From a virus: 10,193 nt of DNA. The stretch lies in the UHGV virus genome UHGV-1549111. The stretch is one strand, 5' to 3'. The notes below the pieces were generated by a model, which ran no database searches, was not told the DNA's origin, and saw only the letters and a list, made by a program, of their open reading frames with translations. The translations under genes and the position numbers were made by a program. Positions 1 to 10,193 of the stretch are shown piece after piece. Position 1 is the first letter of the stretch. Each line of letters opens with the position of its first letter.

Positions 1-46
1 AGATTTCTGCCTGTCTCGTGGGCTCGGAGATGTGTATAAGAGACAG
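1..46 (+). other. Non-biological Illumina library sequence: P7 tail (AGAT), 8-nt i7 index (TTCTGCCT), and Nextera read-2 transposase adapter GTCTCGTGGGCTCGGAGATGTGTATAAGAGACAG at 13-46
   Basis: Exact 34-nt match to the Nextera read-2 adapter at 13-46, ending in the Tn5 mosaic end AGATGTGTATAAGAGACAG. The preceding 8 nt TTCTGCCT are the reverse complement of AGGCAGAA, which from memory is Nextera index N703. Positions 1-4 AGAT match the 3' end of the P7 primer. The six-frame ORF 18-236 begins MGSEMCIRDR, the familiar translation of this adapter. Confidence 0.9.
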
Positions 47-47
47 A

Positions 48-236
48 TATAAAACTCATCAGAGAAAAATGATGGCTGTTTTGGATGAAATCGGTATATC
101 GATTAGTAATGGGCCCAAAAATATTTTTATTGAGGTTGAGAGTCAAATTTTGGATTATATCGATACTATTAATTTGTCATTTTGTCACTCCTCATCAGTG
201 ATAGAATTAAGTAGAGTAAAAAGGAAGTATATATAG
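48..236 (+). CDS. 3' fragment (about 63 codons) of an unknown AT-rich gene truncated by the contig end; possible accessory cargo gene, function unknown
   Basis: Reading frame is open from the first genuine base after the adapter to a TAG stop at 234-236. About 30% G+C (56 of 190 bases counted by hand), against the visibly GC-richer phage genes. Followed immediately by a stem-loop terminator. Translated tail YKTHQRKMMAVLDEIGISISNGPKNIFIEVESQILDYIDTINLSFCHSSSVIELSRVKRKYI has no motif I recognise. An internal ATG at 69-71 could instead start a 55-aa ORF. Confidence 0.35.
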   Translation, partial: YKTHQRKMMAVLDEIGISISNGPKNIFIEVESQILDYIDTINLSFCHSSSVIELSRVKRKYI

Positions 237-238
237 TT

Positions 239-277
239 AAGTTGGCGGGATTGCATTCCGCCAACTTTATATATTTA
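239..277 (+). terminator. Rho-independent terminator-like hairpin between two convergent genes
   Basis: Perfect inverted repeat GTTGGCGG (241-248) / CCGCCAAC (258-265) with a 9-nt loop, extendable by two A-T pairs (239-240 / 266-267), followed by TTTATATATTT. Lies 3 nt after the plus-strand stop at 236 and 12 nt before the minus-strand Q stop at 279-281. The T-rich tail is on the plus strand; the minus-strand side is A-rich, so bidirectional function is uncertain. Confidence 0.45.
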
Positions 278-278
278 C

Positions 279-1298
279 TTATAAGTTATAATCAAGGAAT
301 TTTATGACTTCCATATCTAACCATTCATTTATTGACTTTATTCTCTCCTGTAATGGAATGAGTTCATTGCGGACAAAGACCTTTGCCACTTTTTCAATAT
401 CTCCTAGTGACCCGACATTCTCCGGCTTACCGCCCATCAACTGAAAGGGGATGCGGTGTGCGTCCAGGAGATCTGCGGCGCTGACTTTTTTGATATTAAA
501 AAAATCGTCCTTCGTCGCCACTTCACTGAGGGGGATAATTTTAATGCCGTCGGCTTTCCCCTGTGGGGCATAGAGAAACAGGTTTTTAAAGTTGTTGCGG
601 CCTTTCGACTTAACCATGTTTTCGCGAAGCATTTCGATATCGTTGCGATCCTGCACGGCATCGGTGACATACATGATGTATCCGGCATGAGCGCCGTTTT
701 CGTAATACTTGCGGCGGAACAGCGTGGCCGACTCATTCAGCCAGGCAGAGTTAAGGGCGCTGAGATATTCCGGCAGGCCGTACAGCTCCTGATTGATATC
801 CGGCTCCAGCAGGTGAAACACGGAGCCGGGCGCGAAGGCTGTCGGCTCGTTGAAGGACGGAACCCACCAGTAAACATCCTCCTCCACGCCACGGCGGGTA
901 TATTTTGCCGGTGAGGTTTCCAGTCTGATGACCTTACCGGTGGTGCTGTAACGCTTTTCCAGAAACGCATTACCGAACACCAGAAAATCCAGCACAAAGC
1001 GGCTGAAATCCTGCTGGGACAGCCACGGGTGCGGGATAAACGTTGAAGCCAGAATATTGCGTTTAACGTAAATCGGTGAGCTGTGATGCACGGCAGCACG
1101 CAGGCTTTTTGCCAGACCGGTAAAGCTGACCGGTGGCTCATACCATCTGCCGTTACTGATGCACTCGACGTAATCCAGAATATCACGGCGGTCGAGTACC
1201 GGCACCGGCTCACCAAAGGTGAATGCCTCCATTTTCGGGGCGCTGGCAGTCATTGTTTTCACCGCTGGCTGCGGTGTTTTCCCTTTTTTCTTGCTCAT
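279..1298 (-). CDS. Q: Portal protein (P2 gpQ-like), 339 aa
   Basis: Translation recognised as P2-family portal protein. ATG at 1298-1296 overlaps the stop of the upstream terminase gene (ATGA overlap), the typical P2 Q-P arrangement. Confidence 0.93.
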   Translation of the reverse strand: MSKKKGKTPQPAVKTMTASAPKMEAFTFGEPVPVLDRRDILDYVECISNGRWYEPPVSFTGLAKSLRAAVHHSSPIYVKRNILASTFIPHPWLSQQDFSRFVLDFLVFGNAFLEKRYSTTGKVIRLETSPAKYTRRGVEEDVYWWVPSFNEPTAFAPGSVFHLLEPDINQELYGLPEYLSALNSAWLNESATLFRRKYYENGAHAGYIMYVTDAVQDRNDIEMLRENMVKSKGRNNFKNLFLYAPQGKADGIKIIPLSEVATKDDFFNIKKVSAADLLDAHRIPFQLMGGKPENVGSLGDIEKVAKVFVRNELIPLQERIKSINEWLDMEVIKFLDYNL

Positions 1299-3070
1299 CA
1301 GTAAAACTCCAGAATGGTGGATGTCAGCGGGGTGCTGATACCGGCGGTGAGTGGCTCATTTAACAGGGCGTGCATGGTCGCCCAGGCGAGGTCGGCGTGG
1401 CTGGCTTCCTCGCTGCGGCTGGCCTCATAGGTGGCGCTGCGTCCGCTGCTGGTCATGGTCTTGCGGATAGCCATAAACGAGCTGGTGATGTCGGTGGCGC
1501 TGACGTCATATTCCAGACAGCCACGGCGAATAACGTCTTTTGCCTTGAGCACCATTGCGGTTTTCATTTCCGGCGTGTAGCGGATATCGCGTGCGGCGGG
1601 ATAGAACGAGCGAACGAGCTGGAACACGCCGACACCGAGGCCGGTGGCATCAATTCCGATGTATTCGACGTTGTATTTTTCGGTGAGTTTGCGGATGGAT
1701 TCAGCCTGGGTGGCAAAGTCCATGCCTTTCCACTGGTGACGCTCAAGTATTCTGAATTTGCCACCGGCCACCACCGGCGGTGCCAGCACCACGCATCCGG
1801 CACTGTCGCCACGGTGTGACGGGTCGTAACCAATCCAGACCGGGCGGGAGCCGAACGGATTCGCGGCAAACGGCGCATGGTCTTCCCATTCTTCCAGCGT
1901 GTCGACCATGCAGCGTTGCAGCTCCTCGAACGGGAACACCGACGCCTTGTCGTCAACAAATTCACACATGAACAGGTTTTTAAAATCGTCGGCGCTGTTT
2001 TCGCGTTTAAGCTGCTCAATGTCGAACAGCGTGCAGCCACCTTTCAGGGCGTCCTCAATGGTGACAATCTGCCGCCACTGACCGTCCGCACAGAGAAGCC
2101 CACCGGCAAGAGCGTTATGACTGACGTCGATTTCCACGCGTTCGGCGGCGCTGGCGCGTCCCCGGTTGAACAGTTCACCCGACCAGAACGGGTAGGCGTC
2201 GTGCGCCAGCGTGGACGGGGTGGAGAAATAGGTCGAGCGCAGGTGACTCTGTGAGGCCATACCTGATGCCACCTTACGCAGTACCTGAAAATTCGGTATC
2301 CAGAAAATCTCGTCGACGTACAGGTCGCCGTTATGGCTCTGCGCGGTGTTGGAGTTGGTGCCGAGAAAAATCAGTTTTGCGCCGTTATTGCCCAGGACAA
2401 TCGGGTCACCGGTCAGGTCAACGTCAACCAGCCGGGCAAAGGCGATGATGTATTCGCGGAACACATACGCCTGCGTTTTACTGGCCGACAGAAAAATCTG
2501 GTTATGACCGGTTTTCAGGGCGCGCAGCAGCGCCTCGCGGGAAAAATAAAACGTCGCGCCAATCTGGCGGGATTTCAGGATATCGCGGATGCGGTGCTCA
2601 AGCCCGGCGCGATACCAGTGCAACTGATATTCGAAAGACTGCTCAAAGAAAATCTGCTCCAGCTTTTCGATAGCCTCGTCACTGAAAAAATTCTTTTTCG
2701 GTTTGCGCCGCCCGCCTTTGTTGCGGTTAGCGATGTTCGGATTAAGGTCTGCCTCGTTGCCGGTCTGGCTGTAGCGGTTTACCCGTGCCAGTCGTTCAAT
2801 CTGGCGTCCGAGCAGGTCAATTTCCTTGAAGTCACCGCCGGTTTTCTGCGGTTTGATGATGAGCTGGGTCAGCCGCGCTTCCAGACTCATTTCGACACGG
2901 CTGATGGGGGCAACGCTGTCCCAGCCGTCGCGCTGTTTCCAGCTCTGCACCGTCGGGCGTTTCATCTGCAACATGGCGGCAATCTGCGGCACGGAAAATC
3001 CCTGCCAGTACAGCAGCGCCGCCTGACGACGCGGGTCGTGTAAAAGAGTGGTGTCTGTGGTGATGGTCAT
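1298..3070 (-). CDS. P: Terminase large (ATPase) subunit (P2 gpP-like), 590 aa
   Basis: Translation recognised as P2 gpP. I place the start at the ATG 3070-3068 (MTITTDTTLL...) rather than the ORF-track start at 3100, because a GAGG Shine-Dalgarno sits 5 nt upstream of it and it gives the 590-aa length I expect for gpP. Confidence 0.92.
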   Translation of the reverse strand: MTITTDTTLLHDPRRQAALLYWQGFSVPQIAAMLQMKRPTVQSWKQRDGWDSVAPISRVEMSLEARLTQLIIKPQKTGGDFKEIDLLGRQIERLARVNRYSQTGNEADLNPNIANRNKGGRRKPKKNFFSDEAIEKLEQIFFEQSFEYQLHWYRAGLEHRIRDILKSRQIGATFYFSREALLRALKTGHNQIFLSASKTQAYVFREYIIAFARLVDVDLTGDPIVLGNNGAKLIFLGTNSNTAQSHNGDLYVDEIFWIPNFQVLRKVASGMASQSHLRSTYFSTPSTLAHDAYPFWSGELFNRGRASAAERVEIDVSHNALAGGLLCADGQWRQIVTIEDALKGGCTLFDIEQLKRENSADDFKNLFMCEFVDDKASVFPFEELQRCMVDTLEEWEDHAPFAANPFGSRPVWIGYDPSHRGDSAGCVVLAPPVVAGGKFRILERHQWKGMDFATQAESIRKLTEKYNVEYIGIDATGLGVGVFQLVRSFYPAARDIRYTPEMKTAMVLKAKDVIRRGCLEYDVSATDITSSFMAIRKTMTSSGRSATYEASRSEEASHADLAWATMHALLNEPLTAGISTPLTSTILEFY

Positions 3071-3243
3071 GAATACCTCGCCGTGATGAATACACGGCAA
3101 GGCTACTGAGTCGCGCCCCGCGATTCGCTAAGGTGCTGTTGTGTCAGTGATAAGCCATCCGGGACTGATGGCGGAGGATGCGCATCGTCGGGAAACTGAT
3201 GCCGACATGTGACTCTTCTAATCACTTTTCAGGACTCCTGACA
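3071..3243. promoter_or_regulatory. Divergent intergenic region between P and O; expected site of the divergent P2 late promoters for the P-Q and O-N-M-L operons
   Basis: 173-bp non-coding gap between two divergently transcribed late operons. In P2 the activator-dependent late promoters PP and PO lie here. I could not find a perfect TGT-N12-ACA activator half-site pair by eye, so this is a positional call only. Confidence 0.45.
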
Positions 3244-4098
3244 ATGGCAAAAAAAGTCTCAAAATTCTTTCGTATCGGCGTTGAGGGTGACACCTGTGAC
3301 GGGCGTGTCATCAGTGCGCAGGATATTCAGGAAATGGCCGAAACCTTTGACCCGCGTGTCTATGGTTGCCGCATTAACCTGGAACATCTGCGCGGCATCC
3401 TGCCTGACGGTATTTTTAAACGTTATGGCGATGTGGCCGAACTGAAGGCCGAAAAGATTGATGACGATTCGGCGCTGAAAGGCAAATGGGCGCTGTTTGC
3501 GAAAATCACCCCGACCGATGACCTTATCGCGATGAACAAGGCCGCGCAGAAGGTCTACACCTCAATGGAAATTCAGCCGAACTTTGCCAACACCGGCAAA
3601 TGTTATCTGGTGGGTCTGGCCGTCACCGATGACCCGGCAAGCCTCGGCACGGAATACCTGGAATTCTGCCGCACGGCAAAACACAACCCCCTGAACCGCT
3701 TCAAATTAAGCCCTGAAAACCTGATTTCAGTGGCAACGCCTGTTGAGCTGGAATTTGAAGACCTGCCTGAAACCGTGTTCACCGCCCTGACCGAAAAGGT
3801 GAAATCCATTTTTGGCCGCAAACAGGCCAGCGATGACGCCCGTCTGAATGACGTGCATGAAGCGGTGACCGCTGTTGCTGAACATGTGCAGGAAAAGCTG
3901 AGCGCCACTGAGCAGCGACTCGCTGAGATGGAAACCGCCTTTTCCGCACTTAAGCAGGAGGTGACTGACAGGGCGGATGAAACCAGCCAGGCATTCAGCC
4001 GCCTGAAAAACAGTCTCGACCACACCGAAAGTCTGACCCAGCAGCGCCGCAGCAAGGCCACCGGCGGTGGCGGTGACGCCCTGATGACGAACTGCTGA
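3244..4098 (+). CDS. O: Capsid scaffolding protein with N-terminal serine protease domain (P2 gpO-like), 284 aa
   Basis: Start ATG 3244 (MAKKVSKFFRIG...) with AGGA Shine-Dalgarno at 3231-3234. Counted from this start, residues Asp19, His48 and Ser107 are present, matching the catalytic triad I recall for the gpO protease. The 22-codon extension from 3178 in the ORF track has no ribosome-binding site. Confidence 0.92.
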   Translation: MAKKVSKFFRIGVEGDTCDGRVISAQDIQEMAETFDPRVYGCRINLEHLRGILPDGIFKRYGDVAELKAEKIDDDSALKGKWALFAKITPTDDLIAMNKAAQKVYTSMEIQPNFANTGKCYLVGLAVTDDPASLGTEYLEFCRTAKHNPLNRFKLSPENLISVATPVELEFEDLPETVFTALTEKVKSIFGRKQASDDARLNDVHEAVTAVAEHVQEKLSATEQRLAEMETAFSALKQEVTDRADETSQAFSRLKNSLDHTESLTQQRRSKATGGGGDALMTNC

Positions 4099-4156
4099 CC
4101 GGCGTCAGCCAGTCCGGGAAAACCTTCACGATTAACCCTTAATTTCAGGAAAAACT

Positions 4157-5230
4157 ATGCGCCAGGAAACCCGCTTTAAATTTAATGCCTACCTGTCCCG
4201 TGTTGCCGAACTGAACGGCATCGACGCCGGTGATGTGTCGAAAAAATTCACCGTTGAACCGTCGGTCACCCAGACCCTGATGAACACCATGCAGGAGTCC
4301 TCTGACTTTCTGACCCGCATCAACATTGTGCCGGTCAGCGAAATGAAAGGGGAAAAAATTGGCATCGGTGTCACCGGCTCCATCGCCAGCACCACCGACA
4401 CCGCCGGTGGCACCGAGCGTCAGCCGAAGGACTTCTCGAAGCTGGCGTCCAACAAGTACGAATGCGACCAGATTAACTTCGATTTTTATATCCGCTACAA
4501 AACGCTGGACCTGTGGGCGCGTTATCAGGATTTCCAGCTCCGTATCCGTAACGCCATTATCAAACGCCAGTCCCTTGATTTCATCATGGCCGGTTTTAAC
4601 GGCGTGAAGCGTGCCGAAACCTCTGACCGCAGCAGCAATCCGATGCTGCAGGATGTGGCGGTCGGCTGGCTGCAGAAATACCGCAATGAAGCCCCGGCGC
4701 GCGTGATGAGCAAGGTCACTGACGAGGAAGGGCACACCACCTCTGAGGTCATCCGCGTGGGTAAGGGCGGTGATTATGCCAGCCTTGATGCACTGGTGAT
4801 GGATGCGACCAACAACCTGATTGAACCGTGGTATCAGGAAGACCCTGACCTTGTGGTGATTGTGGGGCGTCAGCTACTGGCGGACAAGTATTTTCCCATC
4901 GTCAACAAGGAGCAGGACAACAGCGAAATGCTGGCCGCTGACGTCATCATCAGCCAGAAACGCATCGGCAACCTGCCAGCGGTACGCGTCCCGTACTTCC
5001 CGGCGGATGCGATGCTCATCACGAAGCTGGAAAACCTGTCCATCTACTACATGGATGACAGCCATCGCCGCGTGATTGAGGAAAACCCGAAACTCGACCG
5101 CGTGGAGAACTACGAGTCAATGAACATTGATTACGTGGTGGAAGACTACGCCGCCGGTTGTCTGGTGGAAAAAATTAAGGTCGGTGATTTCTCCACACCG
5201 GCTAAGGCGACCGCAGAGCCGGGAGCGTAA
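4157..5230 (+). CDS. N: Major capsid protein (P2 gpN-like), 357 aa
   Basis: Translation recognised as P2 gpN. AGGA Shine-Dalgarno at 4147-4150, 6 nt before the ATG. Gene order O-N-M. Confidence 0.94.
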   Translation: MRQETRFKFNAYLSRVAELNGIDAGDVSKKFTVEPSVTQTLMNTMQESSDFLTRINIVPVSEMKGEKIGIGVTGSIASTTDTAGGTERQPKDFSKLASNKYECDQINFDFYIRYKTLDLWARYQDFQLRIRNAIIKRQSLDFIMAGFNGVKRAETSDRSSNPMLQDVAVGWLQKYRNEAPARVMSKVTDEEGHTTSEVIRVGKGGDYASLDALVMDATNNLIEPWYQEDPDLVVIVGRQLLADKYFPIVNKEQDNSEMLAADVIISQKRIGNLPAVRVPYFPADAMLITKLENLSIYYMDDSHRRVIEENPKLDRVENYESMNIDYVVEDYAAGCLVEKIKVGDFSTPAKATAEPGA

Positions 5231-5233
5231 CCG

Positions 5234-5977
5234 ATGACGAGTCCCGCACAGCGCCACATGATGCGGGTCTCGGCAGCGATGACCGCGCAGCGGGAAGCCG
5301 CCCCGCTGCGACATGCAACTGTCTATGAGCAGATGCTGGTCAAGCTGGCCGCAGACCAGCGCACACTGAAAGCGATTTATTCAAAAGAGCTGAAGGCCGC
5401 GAAAAAACGCGAACTGCTGCCGTTCTGGTTGCCGTGGGTGAACGGCGTGCTGGAGCAGGGCAAAGGCGCACAGGATGACATTCTGATGACGGTCATGCTG
5501 TGGCGTCTGGATACCGGCGATATTGCCGGTGCGCTGGAGATTGCCCGTTATGCCCTGAAATACGGTCTGACCATGCCGGGTAAACACCGCCGCACCCCGC
5601 CGTACATGTTCACCGAGGAGGTCGCGCTCGCGGCCATGCGCGCCCACGCGGCCGGTGAGTCTGTGGATACCCGCCTGCTGACGGAGACCCTTGAACTGAC
5701 TGCCGCTGCTGACATGCCTGATGAAGTGCGCGCAAAGCTGCACAAAATCACCGGTCTGTTTCTGCGTGACGGTGGTGATGCCGCCGGTGCGCTGGCGCAC
5801 CTGCAACGTGCGACACAGCTTGACTGTCAGGCAGGCGTCAAAAAAGAGATTGAACGACTGGAGCGGGAGCTGAAACCGAAGCCGGAGCCGCAGCCAAAAG
5901 CGGCCACCCGCGCCCCGCGTAAGACCCGGAGTGCGACACCGGCAAAACGTGGACGCCCGAAAAAGAAAGCCAGTTAA
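5234..5977 (+). CDS. M: Terminase small subunit (P2 gpM-like), 247 aa
   Basis: Starts 3 nt after the N stop, with GGGAG at 5221-5225. Translation recognised as P2 gpM; basic Lys/Arg/Pro-rich C-terminal tail. Confidence 0.9.
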   Translation: MTSPAQRHMMRVSAAMTAQREAAPLRHATVYEQMLVKLAADQRTLKAIYSKELKAAKKRELLPFWLPWVNGVLEQGKGAQDDILMTVMLWRLDTGDIAGALEIARYALKYGLTMPGKHRRTPPYMFTEEVALAAMRAHAAGESVDTRLLTETLELTAAADMPDEVRAKLHKITGLFLRDGGDAAGALAHLQRATQLDCQAGVKKEIERLERELKPKPEPQPKAATRAPRKTRSATPAKRGRPKKKAS

Positions 5978-6076
5978 CAACCGAATGCGCCCCGCGCCAG
6001 GGCGGCACGCCGGTCAGTGAGGGTGAATCACCTGACACTGTACCGGCGTCCACCGCCCGACTTTTCAGAGGTAGTC

Positions 6077-6586
6077 ATGATGACGCTGATTATTCCGCGA
6101 AAGGAGGCTCCCGTGTCCGGTGAGGGTACGGTGGTCATCCCGCAACCGGCAGGCGACGAGCCGGTGATTAAAAACACGTTCTTTTTTCCCGATATCGACC
6201 CGAAGCGCGTCCGGGAACGTATGCGCCTTGAGCAGACTGTCGCCCCCGCCCGTCTGCGTGAGGCCATCAAGTCAGGCATGGCGGAGACGAATGCGGAGCT
6301 GTACGAGTACCGCGAACAGAAAATTGCCGCCGGTTTTACGCGTCTGGCGGACGTCCCGGCGGACGACATCGACGGTGAAAGCATCAAAGTTTTTTACTAC
6401 GAGCGCGCCGTGTGCGCGATGGCGACCGCATCGCTTTATGAGCGTTATCGCGGCGTGGATGCCAGTGCGAAAGGCGACAAGAAGGCCGACAGCATTGACA
6501 GCACCATTGATGAGCTGTGGCGGGATATGCGCTGGGCGGTGGCGCGCATCCAGGACAAGCCGCGCTGCATCGTGAGTCAAATCTGA
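6077..6586 (+). CDS. L: Head completion/stabilisation protein (P2 gpL-like), 169 aa
   Basis: Start ATG 6077 (MMTLIIPRKEAP...) preceded by AGAGG at 6067-6071. Stop TGA 6584-6586 overlaps the X start codon. Confidence 0.9.
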   Translation: MMTLIIPRKEAPVSGEGTVVIPQPAGDEPVIKNTFFFPDIDPKRVRERMRLEQTVAPARLREAIKSGMAETNAELYEYREQKIAAGFTRLADVPADDIDGESIKVFYYERAVCAMATASLYERYRGVDASAKGDKKADSIDSTIDELWRDMRWAVARIQDKPRCIVSQI

Positions 6587-6789
6587 TGAAGGCCTTTGCG
6601 CTACAGGGCGACACGCTCGACGCCATTTGTGTCCGGTATTACGGGCGCACTGAGGGCGTGGTTGAGGCCGTGCTCGCCGCAAATCCGGGACTGGCTGAAC
6701 TGGGTGCGGTGCTGCCACACGGCACCGCCGTCGAACTGCCCGACGTTCAGACCGCGCCCGTGGCTGAAACTGTCAATCTGTGGGAGTAA
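6586..6789 (+). CDS. X: Tail protein X (P2 gpX-like, small LysM-like baseplate protein), 67 aa
   Basis: ATG 6586-6588 overlaps the L stop (ATGA). Translation MKAFALQGDTLDAICVRYYGRTEG... recognised as P2 gpX. The ORF-track extension from 6517 merely overlaps the end of L. Confidence 0.85.
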   Translation: MKAFALQGDTLDAICVRYYGRTEGVVEAVLAANPGLAELGAVLPHGTAVELPDVQTAPVAETVNLWE

Positions 6790-6792
6790 CGC

Positions 6793-7074
6793 ATGACAGC
6801 AGAAGAAAAAAGCGTCCTGTCGCTTTTCATGATTGGGGTGCTGATTGTTGTCGGCAAGGTGCTTGCCGGTGGTGAACCCATCACCCCGCGTCTGTTTATC
6901 GGGCGCATGTTGCTCGGTGGTTTTGTCTCGATGGTTGCCGGTGTTGTTCTGGTGCAGTTTCCTGACCTGTCACTGCCTGCGGTGTGCGGCATTGGCTCCA
7001 TGCTGGGTATCGCCGGTTATCAGGTGATTGAGATTGCCATTCAGCGCCGCTTTAAGGGCAGGGGGAAACCGTAA
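6793..7074 (+). CDS. Y: Holin (P2 gpY-like), 93 aa
   Basis: GGGAG Shine-Dalgarno at 6782-6786. Small protein with hydrophobic membrane-spanning segments and a charged C-terminus (RRFKGRGKP), located immediately upstream of the endolysin. Confidence 0.88.
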   Translation: MTAEEKSVLSLFMIGVLIVVGKVLAGGEPITPRLFIGRMLLGGFVSMVAGVVLVQFPDLSLPAVCGIGSMLGIAGYQVIEIAIQRRFKGRGKP

Positions 7075-7571
7075 TGCCGGTAATTAACACGCATCAGAAT
7101 ATCGCCGCCTTTCTCGACATGCTGGCCGTGTCCGAAGGGACGGCGAACCATCCGCTGACGAAAAACCGGGGCTATGACGTGATAGTCACCGGACTGGACG
7201 GGAAGCCGGAAATTTTCACCGACTACAGTGACCACCCGTTCGCACATGGCCGACCGGCGAAGGTGTTTAACCGTCGCGGTGAAAAATCAACGGCCTCCGG
7301 TCGCTATCAGCAGCTTTACCTGTTCTGGCCGCATTACCGCAAACAGCTTGCCCTGCCGGATTTCAGTCCGTTGTCACAGGACAGACTCGCCATTCAGTTG
7401 ATCCGCGAACGCGGTGCGCTGGATGACATCCGGGCGGGACGCATTGAGCGCGCCATTTCACGCTGTCGCAATATCTGGGCGTCCCTGCCGGGTGCCGGTT
7501 ACGGTCAGCGTGAGCATTCACTGGAAAAACTGGTCACCGTCTGGCGTACCGCTGGCGGCGTACCGGCTTAA
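7074..7571 (+). CDS. K: Endolysin (P2 gpK-like; lambda R-type lytic transglycosylase fold), 165 aa
   Basis: ATG 7074 overlaps the Y stop (TAATG). Clear similarity to lambda R from memory: FLDMLAVSEGT, GYDVIV, FTDYSDHP, IWASLPGAGYGQ, including the catalytic Glu in the SEGT motif. Confidence 0.93.
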   Translation: MPVINTHQNIAAFLDMLAVSEGTANHPLTKNRGYDVIVTGLDGKPEIFTDYSDHPFAHGRPAKVFNRRGEKSTASGRYQQLYLFWPHYRKQLALPDFSPLSQDRLAIQLIRERGALDDIRAGRIERAISRCRNIWASLPGAGYGQREHSLEKLVTVWRTAGGVPA

Positions 7572-7585
7572 ACGGAGTAAACACC

Positions 7586-8011
7586 ATGAAGAAATTATCC
7601 CTTTCACTGATGCTGAACGTGTCGCTGGCGCTGATGCTGGCACTGTCCCTGATTTACCCGCAGAGCGTGGCCGTCAGTTTTGTCGCCACCTGGGCGATTC
7701 TGGCGACGGTTATCTGTGTGGTTGCCGGTGGTGTCGGCGTGTATGCCACTGAGTATGTGCTGGAACGCTACGGGCGGGAGCTGCCGCCGGAATCGCTGGC
7801 CGTGAAGATTGTCACGTCGCTGTTTTTGCAGCCGGTGCCGTGGCGCAGACGGGCGGCGGCTCTGGTGGTGATGGTGGCGACGTTTATCTCGCTGGTCGCT
7901 GCCGGGTGGATTTTTACCGCGCTGATTTACCTCGTGGCGTCGGTGTTCTTCCGGCTGATACGTACGGCCTGTCGTCAGCGTTTTGAGGGGCGGGAACCAT
8001 GTCAAAGCTGA
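7586..8011 (+). CDS. lysA: Lysis-timing membrane protein LysA (P2 lysA-like), 141 aa
   Basis: GGAG Shine-Dalgarno at 7574-7577. Strongly hydrophobic protein with several predicted transmembrane helices, in the P2 lysA position after K. Confidence 0.85.
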   Translation: MKKLSLSLMLNVSLALMLALSLIYPQSVAVSFVATWAILATVICVVAGGVGVYATEYVLERYGRELPPESLAVKIVTSLFLQPVPWRRRAAALVVMVATFISLVAAGWIFTALIYLVASVFFRLIRTACRQRFEGREPCQS

Positions 8012-8424
8012 TGATTGTGATGGTTGTGTTGTTATCGCTGGCGGTGGCGGGGCTGTTTCTGGCGAAGCATGAAAACGCCAGCCTGCGCGCCTCGCTGGAC
8101 AGGGTGAACAACGTCGCCAGTGAACAGCAGACGACCATCACCATGCTGAAAAATCAGCTTCATGTTGCCCTCACCAGGGCAGACAAAAACGAGCTGGCGC
8201 AGGTGGCACTGCGTCAGGAACTGGAGAACGCCGCGAAGCGTGAAGCACAGCGCGAGAAAACCATCACGAGGTTACTTAATGAAAACGAAGATTTTCGCCG
8301 CTGGTATGGTGCTGACCTGCCTGATGCTGTGCGCCGGTTGCACCAGCGCCCCGCCTGCACTGACGCCAGTGATTGTCCACAACGCCTGCCCGAAAGTGAG
8401 TCTTTGCCCGATGCCGGGCAGTGA
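7999..8424 (+). CDS. lysB: Inner-membrane spanin (Rz-like; P2 lysB-like), 141 aa
   Basis: N-terminal transmembrane segment (MSKLMIVMVVLLSLAVAGLFLA) followed by a charged, coiled-coil-like periplasmic region. Overlaps the lysA 3' end by 13 nt. Confidence 0.85.
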   Translation: MSKLMIVMVVLLSLAVAGLFLAKHENASLRASLDRVNNVASEQQTTITMLKNQLHVALTRADKNELAQVALRQELENAAKREAQREKTITRLLNENEDFRRWYGADLPDAVRRLHQRPACTDASDCPQRLPESESLPDAGQ

Positions 8425-8569
8425 CCCGCAGAAGAACGGCGATTTAAGTGCCGATATCCGGCAGCTTGAGAACGCGCTGGCACGCTGTGCCAGCCAGGTA
8501 AAAATGATTAAACACTGTCAGGACGAAAACGATGCTCAAACCCGACAGCCTGCGCAGGGCGCTGACTGA
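8279..8569 (+). CDS. lysC: Outer-membrane lipoprotein spanin (Rz1-like; P2 lysC-like), 96 aa
   Basis: ATG 8279 with GAGG at 8268-8271. N-terminus MKTKIFAAGMVLTCLMLCAGC is a lipoprotein signal peptide with lipobox L-C-A-G-C. Lies in the +1 frame inside lysB and runs past the lysB stop into the start of R. Confidence 0.8.
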   Translation: MKTKIFAAGMVLTCLMLCAGCTSAPPALTPVIVHNACPKVSLCPMPGSDPQKNGDLSADIRQLENALARCASQVKMIKHCQDENDAQTRQPAQGAD

Positions 8570-8999
8570 TGCCGTCACGGTGCTGAAAACTAACCCCGAT
8601 ATGCTGCGGATATTCGTGGATAACGGGAGTATTGCCTCCACGCTGGCGGAGTCGTTGTCATTCGAAAAGCGTTACACGCTCAATGTCATTGTGACCGACT
8701 TTACCGGTGATTTTGACCTGCTCATCGTGCCGGTGCTGGCGTGGCTGCGGGAAAATCAGCCCGACATCATGACCACCGACGAAGGCCAGAAAAAGGGCTT
8801 CACGTTTTATGCAGACATCAACAATGACAGCAGCTTTGATATCAGCATCAGCCTGATGCTGACCGAGCGCACGCTGGTCAGTGAGGTGGACGGCGCACTG
8901 CATGTGAAGAATATCCCGGAACCCACGCCGCCGGAGCCGGTCACCCGCCCGATGGAGCTTTATATCAATGGTGAACTGGTGAGCAAGTGGGATGAATGA
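8532..8999 (+). CDS. R: Tail completion protein (P2 gpR-like), 155 aa
   Basis: Translation recognised as P2 gpR. Position after the lysis cassette; overlaps the S start by 8 nt. Confidence 0.9.
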   Translation: MLKPDSLRRALTDAVTVLKTNPDMLRIFVDNGSIASTLAESLSFEKRYTLNVIVTDFTGDFDLLIVPVLAWLRENQPDIMTTDEGQKKGFTFYADINNDSSFDISISLMLTERTLVSEVDGALHVKNIPEPTPPEPVTRPMELYINGELVSKWDE

Positions 9000-9444
9000 G
9001 TTTAAGCGTTTTGAAGACCGGCTGGCCGGACTTATTGAATCGCTGTCACCGTCAGGGCGTCGGCGACTGAGCGCCGAACTGGCGAAACGTCTGCGGCAGA
9101 GTCAGCAGCGCCGGGTGATGGCACAGAAAGCCCCGGACGGCACACCCTACGCACCACGCCAGCAGCAGAGCGCCAGAAAAAAGACCGGTCGCGTTAAGCG
9201 AAAAATGTTTGCGAAACTTATCACCAGTCGTTTTTTGCATATCCGCGCCAGCCCGGAACATGCATCAATGGAGTTTTACGGCGGAAAGTCACCGAAAATC
9301 GCCAGTGTGCATCAGTTCGGTCTGTCGGAAGAAACCCGGAAAGACGGTAAGAAAATTGATTATCCGGCGCGTCCTCTGCTCGGCTTTACCGGTGAGGATG
9401 TGCAGATGATTGAAGAGATTATTCTGGCGCACCTCGACCGTTAG
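8992..9444 (+). CDS. S: Tail completion protein (P2 gpS-like), 150 aa
   Basis: Translation recognised as P2 gpS. ATG 8992 lies inside the R 3' end; TAG stop at 9442-9444. Confidence 0.9.
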   Translation: MNEFKRFEDRLAGLIESLSPSGRRRLSAELAKRLRQSQQRRVMAQKAPDGTPYAPRQQQSARKKTGRVKRKMFAKLITSRFLHIRASPEHASMEFYGGKSPKIASVHQFGLSEETRKDGKKIDYPARPLLGFTGEDVQMIEEIILAHLDR

Positions 9445-9510
9445 TTGTGCCATTCCCGACACCTCATCGTCACATTGCCGCCGGTATGACCCGGCGGCAT
9501 CCTTCCCGTT
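9445..9510 (+). promoter_or_regulatory. S-V intergenic region: expected position of the P2 late promoter for the V-W-J operon; contains a perfect 9-bp inverted repeat at 9476-9499
   Basis: 66-bp gap at the known operon boundary between S and V. TGCCGCCGG (9476-9484) and CCGGCGGCA (9491-9499) are exact reverse complements separated by 6 nt (TATGAC). No purine-rich Shine-Dalgarno precedes the V ATG. Confidence 0.35.
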
Positions 9511-10146
9511 ATGAACACTCTCGCAAATATTCAGGAACTCGCGCGCGCACTGCGCAACATGATACGTACCGGCATTGTCGTCGAAACCGACCTTAACGTC
9601 GGTCGCTGCCGTGTGCAGACCGGCGGCATGTGCACCGACTGGCTTCAGTGGCTGACCCATCGCGCCGGTCGTTCGCGCACATGGTGGGCACCTTCCGTGG
9701 GGGAACAGGTGCTGATTCTGTCCGTGGGCGGTGAACTCGACACGGCGTTCGTTCTGCCGGGGATTTATTCCGGCGATAACCCCGCGCCGTCTGCGTCGGC
9801 GGATGCCCTGCATATCCGTTTCCCTGACGGAGCGGTGATTGAGTATGAACCTGAAACCAGTGCACTCACGGTAAGCGGAATTAAAACGGCCAGCGTGACG
9901 GCTTCTGATTCTGTTACCGCCACGGTGCCGGTGGTCATGGTGAAAGCATCAACCCGCGTCACCCTGGACACACCGGAGGTGGTCTGCACCAACAGGCTGA
10001 TTACCGGCACTCTGGAAGTACAGAAGGGCGGGACGATGCGCGGCAACATTGAACACACCGGCGGTGAACTCTCATCAAACGGTAAGGTACTGCATACCCA
10101 TAAACACCCCGGCGACAGTGGCGGCACAACAGGGGGACCTCTATGA
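9511..10146 (+). CDS. V: Baseplate central spike protein (P2 gpV-like), 211 aa
   Basis: Translation recognised as P2 gpV. C-terminal region carries the His-rich apex LHTHKH. Stop overlaps the W start (ATGA at 10143-10146). Confidence 0.92.
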   Translation: MNTLANIQELARALRNMIRTGIVVETDLNVGRCRVQTGGMCTDWLQWLTHRAGRSRTWWAPSVGEQVLILSVGGELDTAFVLPGIYSGDNPAPSASADALHIRFPDGAVIEYEPETSALTVSGIKTASVTASDSVTATVPVVMVKASTRVTLDTPEVVCTNRLITGTLEVQKGGTMRGNIEHTGGELSSNGKVLHTHKHPGDSGGTTGGPL

Positions 10147-10193
10147 CTGCGCGTTATCTCGGAATGAATCGCAGTGATGGCCTGACGGTCACT
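10143..10193 (+). CDS. W: Baseplate wedge protein (P2 gpW-like), 5' fragment only; gene continues beyond the window
   Basis: ATG 10143 overlapping the V stop. First 17 codons MTARYLGMNRSDGLTVT match my recollection of the gpW N-terminus. The window ends inside the gene. Confidence 0.8.
   Translation, partial: MTARYLGMNRSDGLTVT

Follow-up and report, generated by a model that had tools for sequence, protein, structure and literature searches.

The window, a stretch of 10,193 nucleotides from the UHGV virus genome UHGV-1549111, opens with a short AT-rich segment that runs towards the portal gene of a P2-like phage. The following features were delimited at this end, with the basis for each given in parentheses.

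The left end of the window

1-46, no strand: read-through of an Illumina Nextera library adapter, non-genomic (exact 34-nt match at 13-46 and alignment break)
48-236, plus strand: 3' end (residues 174-235 and stop) of the gene for the two-transmembrane effector of retron Ec48 / Retron-Eco6, type IV (DNA identity and profiles)
239-267, plus strand: 13-bp G+C-cored hairpin with a T-rich tail, likely an intrinsic terminator (folding and terminator scan)
279-1298, minus strand: portal gene Q of a P2-like (Peduovirus) prophage, 339 aa, convergent with the effector gene (identity to P2 gpQ and Pfam)
279-340, minus strand: AT-rich version of the end of Q, ~20 codons (22.6% G+C and similarity break)

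By base count, G+C content is 31.0% over positions 47-278 and 29.5% over 47-236, as against 52.5% in the rest of Q and 57% over 341-10193. The AT-rich block extends past 278 into positions 279-340. The plus-strand open reading frame at 48-236 (+2 frame) comprises 62 sense codons followed by a TAG stop at 234-236. The remaining five frames of the segment contain four to eight stops each, and a run of 62 stop-free codons has a chance probability of ~0.004 at the local base composition. The stop of the effector frame (236) and that of the convergent gene Q (279) are separated by 42 nt. A sequence-only reading of the window had described positions 47-278 as an AT-rich segment against a GC-richer backbone, carrying the 3' end of a plus-strand reading frame with a stem-loop and converging on Q. 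This observation is confirmed at the sequence level (31% versus 57% G+C, frame at 48-236, hairpin at 239-267), with two corrections. The segment is not the sole sequence of the window foreign to the P2 late module, as had been stated: positions 1-46 are Nextera adapter, and the AT-rich block runs through 279-340.

The adapter is recognized by a 34-nt exact match to the Nextera transposase adapter at positions 13-46; ahead of this match stand AGAT and an 8-nt index-like string. We take AGAT to be the end of P7 and TTCTGCCT to be the 8-nt index, and the 34 nt presumably end in the Tn5 mosaic end. When the window is aligned with two to three genomic copies, identity is perfect from position 47 on and the sequence before it is unrelated. 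The contig ends at a Tn5 tagmentation site from which the adapter was not trimmed, and this is why the effector gene appears cut. The gene truncation noted in the earlier reading is technical rather than biological, the break coinciding with the adapter end at 46/47. Positions 1-46 should be flagged as contamination and need trimming.

Three nucleotides past the effector stop begins the hairpin AAGTTGGCGGGAT-TGC-ATTCCGCCAACTT (239-267), which has six G-C pairs among its 13 bp and is followed on the plus strand by the tail TATATATTTA. The plus strand folds with energies of -18.6 (centroid) and -20.8 kcal/mol (minimum free energy; z = -5.5; none of 200 shuffles was as good), and the minus strand folds at -20.6 kcal/mol (z = -6.0). 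The consensus terminator scan accepts the hairpin on the plus strand only. The stability of this G+C-cored stem and its T-rich tail make the terminator named in the earlier reading plausible. The hairpin likely ends the transcript of the retron operon and, as its position suggests, the convergent P-Q transcript too. Another terminator-like hairpin, CACCGCTGGCTGCGGTG followed by TTTTCCCTTT, lies at 1260-1276 (plus strand), antisense within the 5' end of Q near the P/Q junction; the consensus scan probably matched it by chance.

Identity and distribution of the effector gene

The 62 residues encoded by the open reading frame correspond to residues 174-235 of the 235-aa protein WP_000993280.1, annotated as "retron Ec48 family effector membrane protein". 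At the DNA level, the frame is 100% identical to positions 8001-8190 of the relative L001, where this protein is annotated; in CP098178, the effector gene is 708 nt long and encodes the same 235-aa product (WP_000993280.1). The sequence-only reading had stated that the translation matches nothing recognizable. The fragment does match both NCBIfam NF038235 "retron_Ec48_2TM" (56.9 bits, E = 2e-15, profile positions 171-219 of 219) and PADLOC 2TM_IV (76.9 bits, E = 3.7e-22). The NF038235 score falls below the cut-off of 65 because the fragment covers no more than 49 of the 219 profile positions, the other three quarters of the protein being encoded beyond the contig end.

Profile searches and structure prediction, proposed in the same reading as a check, were run on the full-length gene of relatives. 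The complete effector, taken from genomes that share the visible DNA, scores 226.7 bits with NF038235, above the cut-off of 65, and 282.9 bits over residues 3-235 with PADLOC 2TM_IV. In this full-length allele, hydropathy windows exceed 1.6 at residues 5-32 and 58-86, both encoded outside the window, and the AF2 model places helices at 3-33 and 56-90. Two N-terminal transmembrane helices fit the published delta-3-85 deletion, which removes both. As modelled, the membrane-spanning part of the effector is followed by a helical C-terminal domain.

Homologues of the effector with 37-68% identity were identified in Serratia, Enterobacter, Klebsiella, Photorhabdus, and Proteus, all of them with the Pfam domain PF28197 "Retron_Ec48_antiviral". 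Fifteen positions are invariant in 13 homologues (Y172, K173, Y174, H177, Q178, G195, K197, N198, F200, E204, D212, N215, F218, R232, and Y234). According to the homologue alignment, invariant residues are most densely clustered in the part of the effector that the window encodes, and the most conserved C-terminal motifs of the family, K-Y-K-x-H-Q and G-x-K-N-x-F, fall within the window frame. Comparison of the effector with PDB sequences returned nothing at E <= 1, and a Foldseek search of its AF2 model against the PDB returned no match at E <= 0.001 and so gave no fold clue to the C-terminal domain. A single-protein scan of GTDB representative genomes found no relative, a profile-based scan of the same genomes found three loci only, and a copy of Pfam without PF28197 gave no match.

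The distribution of the segment was determined in a collection of 5,426 complete E. coli genomes. With positions 47-420 as the megablast query, the Q-proximal part was detected in 1,505 genomes and the whole query in 57, all at >=99% identity. A more sensitive blastn search with 47-278 alone retrieved the same 57 genomes and no others, with one chromosomal copy each, and 50 of these 57 are identical over 232 of 232 nt. All 57 matches are annotated as "retron Ec48 family effector membrane protein" beside "phage portal protein", and the 235-aa gene was verified in the four records inspected in full. Phage pro147 (NC_028896) is 99.7% identical over the 374-nt query. Within this E. coli collection, the segment was found in no other context. 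Nineteen of the 57 records have the match at position 6565, 6564, 6489, or 6178, such that the chromosome record begins at the start codon of the prophage gpA gene (matches H56-H107); it looks like start-rotation software mistook the phage replication gene for the chromosomal start.

These matches bear on whether the stub could instead be the end of an undescribed defence or accessory system that has no more than a short C-terminal motif in common with the Ec48 effector. In favour of this are the shortness of the visible part (62 codons) and the fragment score, which lies a little under the NCBIfam cut-off. However, the DNA is 100% identical over 232 nt to 50 genomes, each with a full 235-aa effector behind a type IV reverse transcriptase (RT), and the segment has no other context within the genome collection. 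We regard an undescribed system as highly unlikely.

The sequence-only reading had itself named a chimeric misjoin of 47-278 as a possible refutation. Untrimmed reads, evidenced by the adapter at the contig end, can seed misassemblies, and the segment might thus have been joined to Q during assembly. Against this, 57 chromosomes that were assembled independently of one another, and one phage genome (pro147), have the identical effector-hairpin-Q junction, and a related junction is found in Enterobacter. We rejected a misjoin at 236-340, the junction being shared at >=99% identity by the 57 complete E. coli chromosomes and pro147; this rules out the proposed refutation and leaves an assembly chimera with virtually no probability.

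Another concern is that the retron cassette has decayed in this strain and that the visible tail is a pseudogene fragment. Upstream integrity is beyond view after 62 codons, and mobile elements do strike such prophages, as in one record where an ISApl1-family transposase splits the P2 module (H157). Yet the break falls exactly at the sequencing adapter and is a technical end, the effector gene is annotated over the segment in 57 of 57 genomes (with the 235-aa gene in the four records inspected), and the visible 189 nt carry no substitutions relative to the intact allele. Decay is accordingly judged very improbable. From the identical DNA elsewhere we infer that the system is intact in this strain, its RT, non-coding RNA (ncRNA), and transmembrane helices all lying outside the window.

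The retron cassette in relatives and its place in the gpA-gpQ interval

The gene order is the same in CP098178, pro147, LR882050, and EC93: gpA, the Abi-P2 RT (reverse), the retron RT, the effector, the hairpin, and Q and P (reverse). In L001, the retron RT gene (6302-7486) and the effector gene (7483-8190) overlap by 4 nt. The retron RT is 394 aa long, scores 585.6 bits with PADLOC RT_IV, and carries an LVDD box at residues 200-203. When residues are counted from an ATG 14 codons upstream, the aspartates become D216/D217, matching the published Ec48 catalytic mutant (10.1101/2020.06.21.156273). The same RT-effector arrangement is found in Enterobacter, Klebsiella, Serratia, and Photorhabdus. 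In Serratia (L011, 2784-4702), an Ec48-type retron with 67% identity occupies another variable site of a P2-like prophage, flanked by the tail-fibre and tail-sheath genes, and the same retron type occurs in non-P2 contexts in Klebsiella and Photorhabdus.

The ~240 nt located 5' of the RT gene are conserved in eight loci from seven genera, although the effectors are as low as 37% identical. For this leader (L001 6045-6280 and the aligned regions of L004-L013), we specified by hand a structure of five helices in which 96.4% of the cells are paired, compared with 30-47% when the partners are slid, and eight pairs are changed on both sides (compensatory). Two long-range helices formed by inverted repeats (L001 6086-6094/6215-6223 and 6182-6193/6267-6278) both covary and cross each other. 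An invariant G follows the 5' arm of each, and further covarying hairpins lie between. Each of the two crossing helices is a candidate for the a1/a2 of the msr-msd, and together they may form a pseudoknot or a switch. One long-range helix pairs a central part of the leader with sequence immediately 5' of the RT start and might act as a translational switch, by analogy with that recently reported for the sister type VI retrons. When the 4.8 kb from gpA to Q of a relative were scanned with Rfam (E <= 1), neither a retron msr nor any other family was detected.

The 14-codon N-terminal extension of the RT (MGRPYVTL..., L001 6260-6301) is present in some annotations and coincides with the 3' arm of the second leader helix. 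It was rejected as a conserved start, an in-frame TAA being present in four other genera. Because of this in-frame stop and of the overlap with the RNA helix arm, conservation of the extension is probably at the RNA level.

Each of the four inspected records, from E. coli or phage, also encodes Abi-P2, a second defence RT that is unrelated to the retron. Its gene in L001 (4201-5745, minus strand, 514 aa; 531.6 bits with PADLOC AbiP2) lies between gpA and cos and is separated from the retron RT gene by 557 nt. The exact P2 cos 19-mer lies between the two RT genes (L001 5952-5970), which places the retron between cosL and Q, where the packaged genome has its extreme left end. In P2, only 167 bp, tQ included, extend from cosL to the Q stop, and old and tin lie across cos.

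The gpA-gpQ interval of P2-like phages has been described as a defence hotspot that adjoins cos and whose cargo includes retrons (Rousset et al. 2022, PMC9122126). Across 18,150 occurrences, the hotspot shows 1,650 gene arrangements, often with more than one system per locus (PMC9122126). In the E. coli collection, 1,471 genomes hold at least 80% of the 10-kb window; the P2 late module is thus carried by approximately 1,471-1,505 genomes and this retron by 57. These counts uphold the earlier placement of the locus on the variable cos/portal side of a P2-like phage, and its description as accessory, AT-rich, defence-type cargo holds as well, the segment being the 3' end of a retron Ec48 effector gene.

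The product of Q shares 96% identity with P2 gpQ and matches Pfam Phage_portal at 53 bits, and the gene is annotated as "phage portal protein" in the relatives L001 and L002. Only from window position ~340 onward does the DNA resemble that of P2, Wphi, L-413C, and other Peduoviruses. The C-terminal tail of the protein, ERIKSINEWLDMEVIKFLDYNL, has diverged from that of P2, DRIREINGWLGQEVIRFKNYSL, and is 5 aa shorter. The hairpin and the AT-rich Q tail (237-345) are present in exactly the 57 effector-bearing genomes. In Enterobacter (L007), an effector with 68% identity is found in the same gpA-RT-effector-Q order, with a related but weaker hairpin at the effector-Q junction and a Q tail that is nearer to that of the window than to that of P2. 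Given that 237-345 is found only with the retron and that Enterobacter has a related tail, the variable block takes in the 3' end of Q; on this sequence evidence, positions 279-340 belong to the cargo-linked block and not to the conserved P2 backbone. The hairpin was rejected as a universal part of the retron cassette, as no such hairpin follows the homologous effector genes of Klebsiella, Serratia, and Photorhabdus.

Interpretation and comparison with known systems

We conclude with high confidence that an E. coli P2-like prophage carries a retron Ec48 (Retron-Eco6, type IV) defence cassette as cargo and that positions 47-278 are the distal end of this cassette. The system is already described, and the window is not the edge of anything new. 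The suggestion that an undescribed system begins here is not sustained: retron Ec48 / Retron-Eco6 is of type IV, and its anti-phage role and its trigger as a guard of RecBCD have been shown experimentally (10.1101/2020.06.21.156273; 10.1101/2025.10.22.683967). In complete genomes, the cassette comprises, in order, cos, a structured ncRNA of ~240 nt (putative msr-msd), the RT (394 aa), the effector (235 aa), the hairpin as likely terminator, and the convergent gene Q. Of this the window contains the last 62 effector codons, the hairpin, and the cargo-linked AT-rich tail of Q.

The Ec48 RT makes a 48-nt msDNA from the ncRNA. The RT-DNA of Ec48 has been reported as ~45-48 nt, with a length that depends on RNase H1 (PMC8989520). 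Ec48 protects against phages including lambda and T7 only if the RT is catalytically active and the effector has its transmembrane helices, and escape mutants map to lambda gam and T7 5.9 (10.1101/2020.06.21.156273). Expression of the RecBCD inhibitors lambda Gam and T7 gp5.9 kills cells bearing Ec48; the retron cannot be put into recB-deficient cells and is quiet while RecBCD is active (10.1101/2020.06.21.156273). On this basis Ec48 is a "guardian" of RecBCD that acts by abortive infection, with death or a growth stop before phage release (10.1101/2020.06.21.156273), and triggering of Retron-Eco6 by Gam was reproduced in 2025 (10.1101/2025.10.22.683967). The effector alone is non-toxic on over-expression (PMC8989520), and simple pore formation is therefore not established. 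In the mechanism that we consider, the conserved basic C-terminal domain, which is the part encoded in the window, would receive a signal from the RT-msDNA complex, the effector would kill by damaging the inner membrane, and the hairpin would terminate the retron transcript.

The strain very probably carries Retron-Eco6 on a P2-like prophage, and likely Abi-P2 too. Carriage of Retron-Eco6 predicts resistance to phages that inhibit RecBCD. As regards the search for new systems, the result is a clean negative, the one "foreign" piece of the window being a well-characterized retron in a published prophage hotspot. What is modestly new is the cargo-linked swap of the C-terminal codons of the portal gene, the location of the retron on the Q side of cos, and the crossing helices of the leader. 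A further reading, speculative and rather unlikely, is that the retron travels with an AT-rich Q end of its own and a terminator, in E. coli and, in a diverged version, in Enterobacter; separately from this, the crossing helices of the type IV leader, outside the window, might act as a translational switch. If the retron does travel in this way, hotspot exchange would occur by recombination inside the portal gene, and the defence cargo and the portal C-terminal tail would be inherited as one block. Pipelines that delimit hotspots at gene borders would miss a variable block that reaches into the 3' end of Q.

Among known systems, the segment resembles retron Ec48 / Retron-Eco6 (type IV; RT clade 3) in encoding the C-terminus of a protein whose full-length form meets the equivalog model. 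The relatives share with Ec48 the order of ncRNA, RT, and overlapping effector as well as the LVDD box, and their residue numbering is consistent with the published mutants. In the visible part, no difference from Ec48 is detectable, and we infer that the allele is the same as that of the originally cloned Ec48.

The effector is comparable to the transmembrane effectors of CBASS and other abortive-infection systems in that it is short and membrane-anchored, its transmembrane helices are required, and the outcome is death or growth arrest. Unlike the case of CBASS-type transmembrane effectors, to which no sequence or fold similarity was found, the signal in Ec48 is an RT-msDNA complex and not a cyclic nucleotide.

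The hairpin recalls tQ of P2, the rho-independent terminator downstream of Q, in being a G+C-cored hairpin located straight after the Q stop. In contrast to tQ, it has an unrelated sequence, its T-run is on the retron (plus) strand instead of the Q strand, and it is tied to the retron cargo only. The locus as a whole is similar to the gpA-gpQ hotspot of P2-like phages (PMC9122126; Odegrip et al. 2006) in its adjacency to Q, its AT-rich cargo, and its variable occupancy, and the relatives, which carry Abi-P2 and the retron, are similar to those hotspots that hold more than one system. It differs from P2 itself, whose old and tin genes are found on the side of cos towards gpA: here the retron is on the Q side, and the cargo includes a replaced 3' end of Q.
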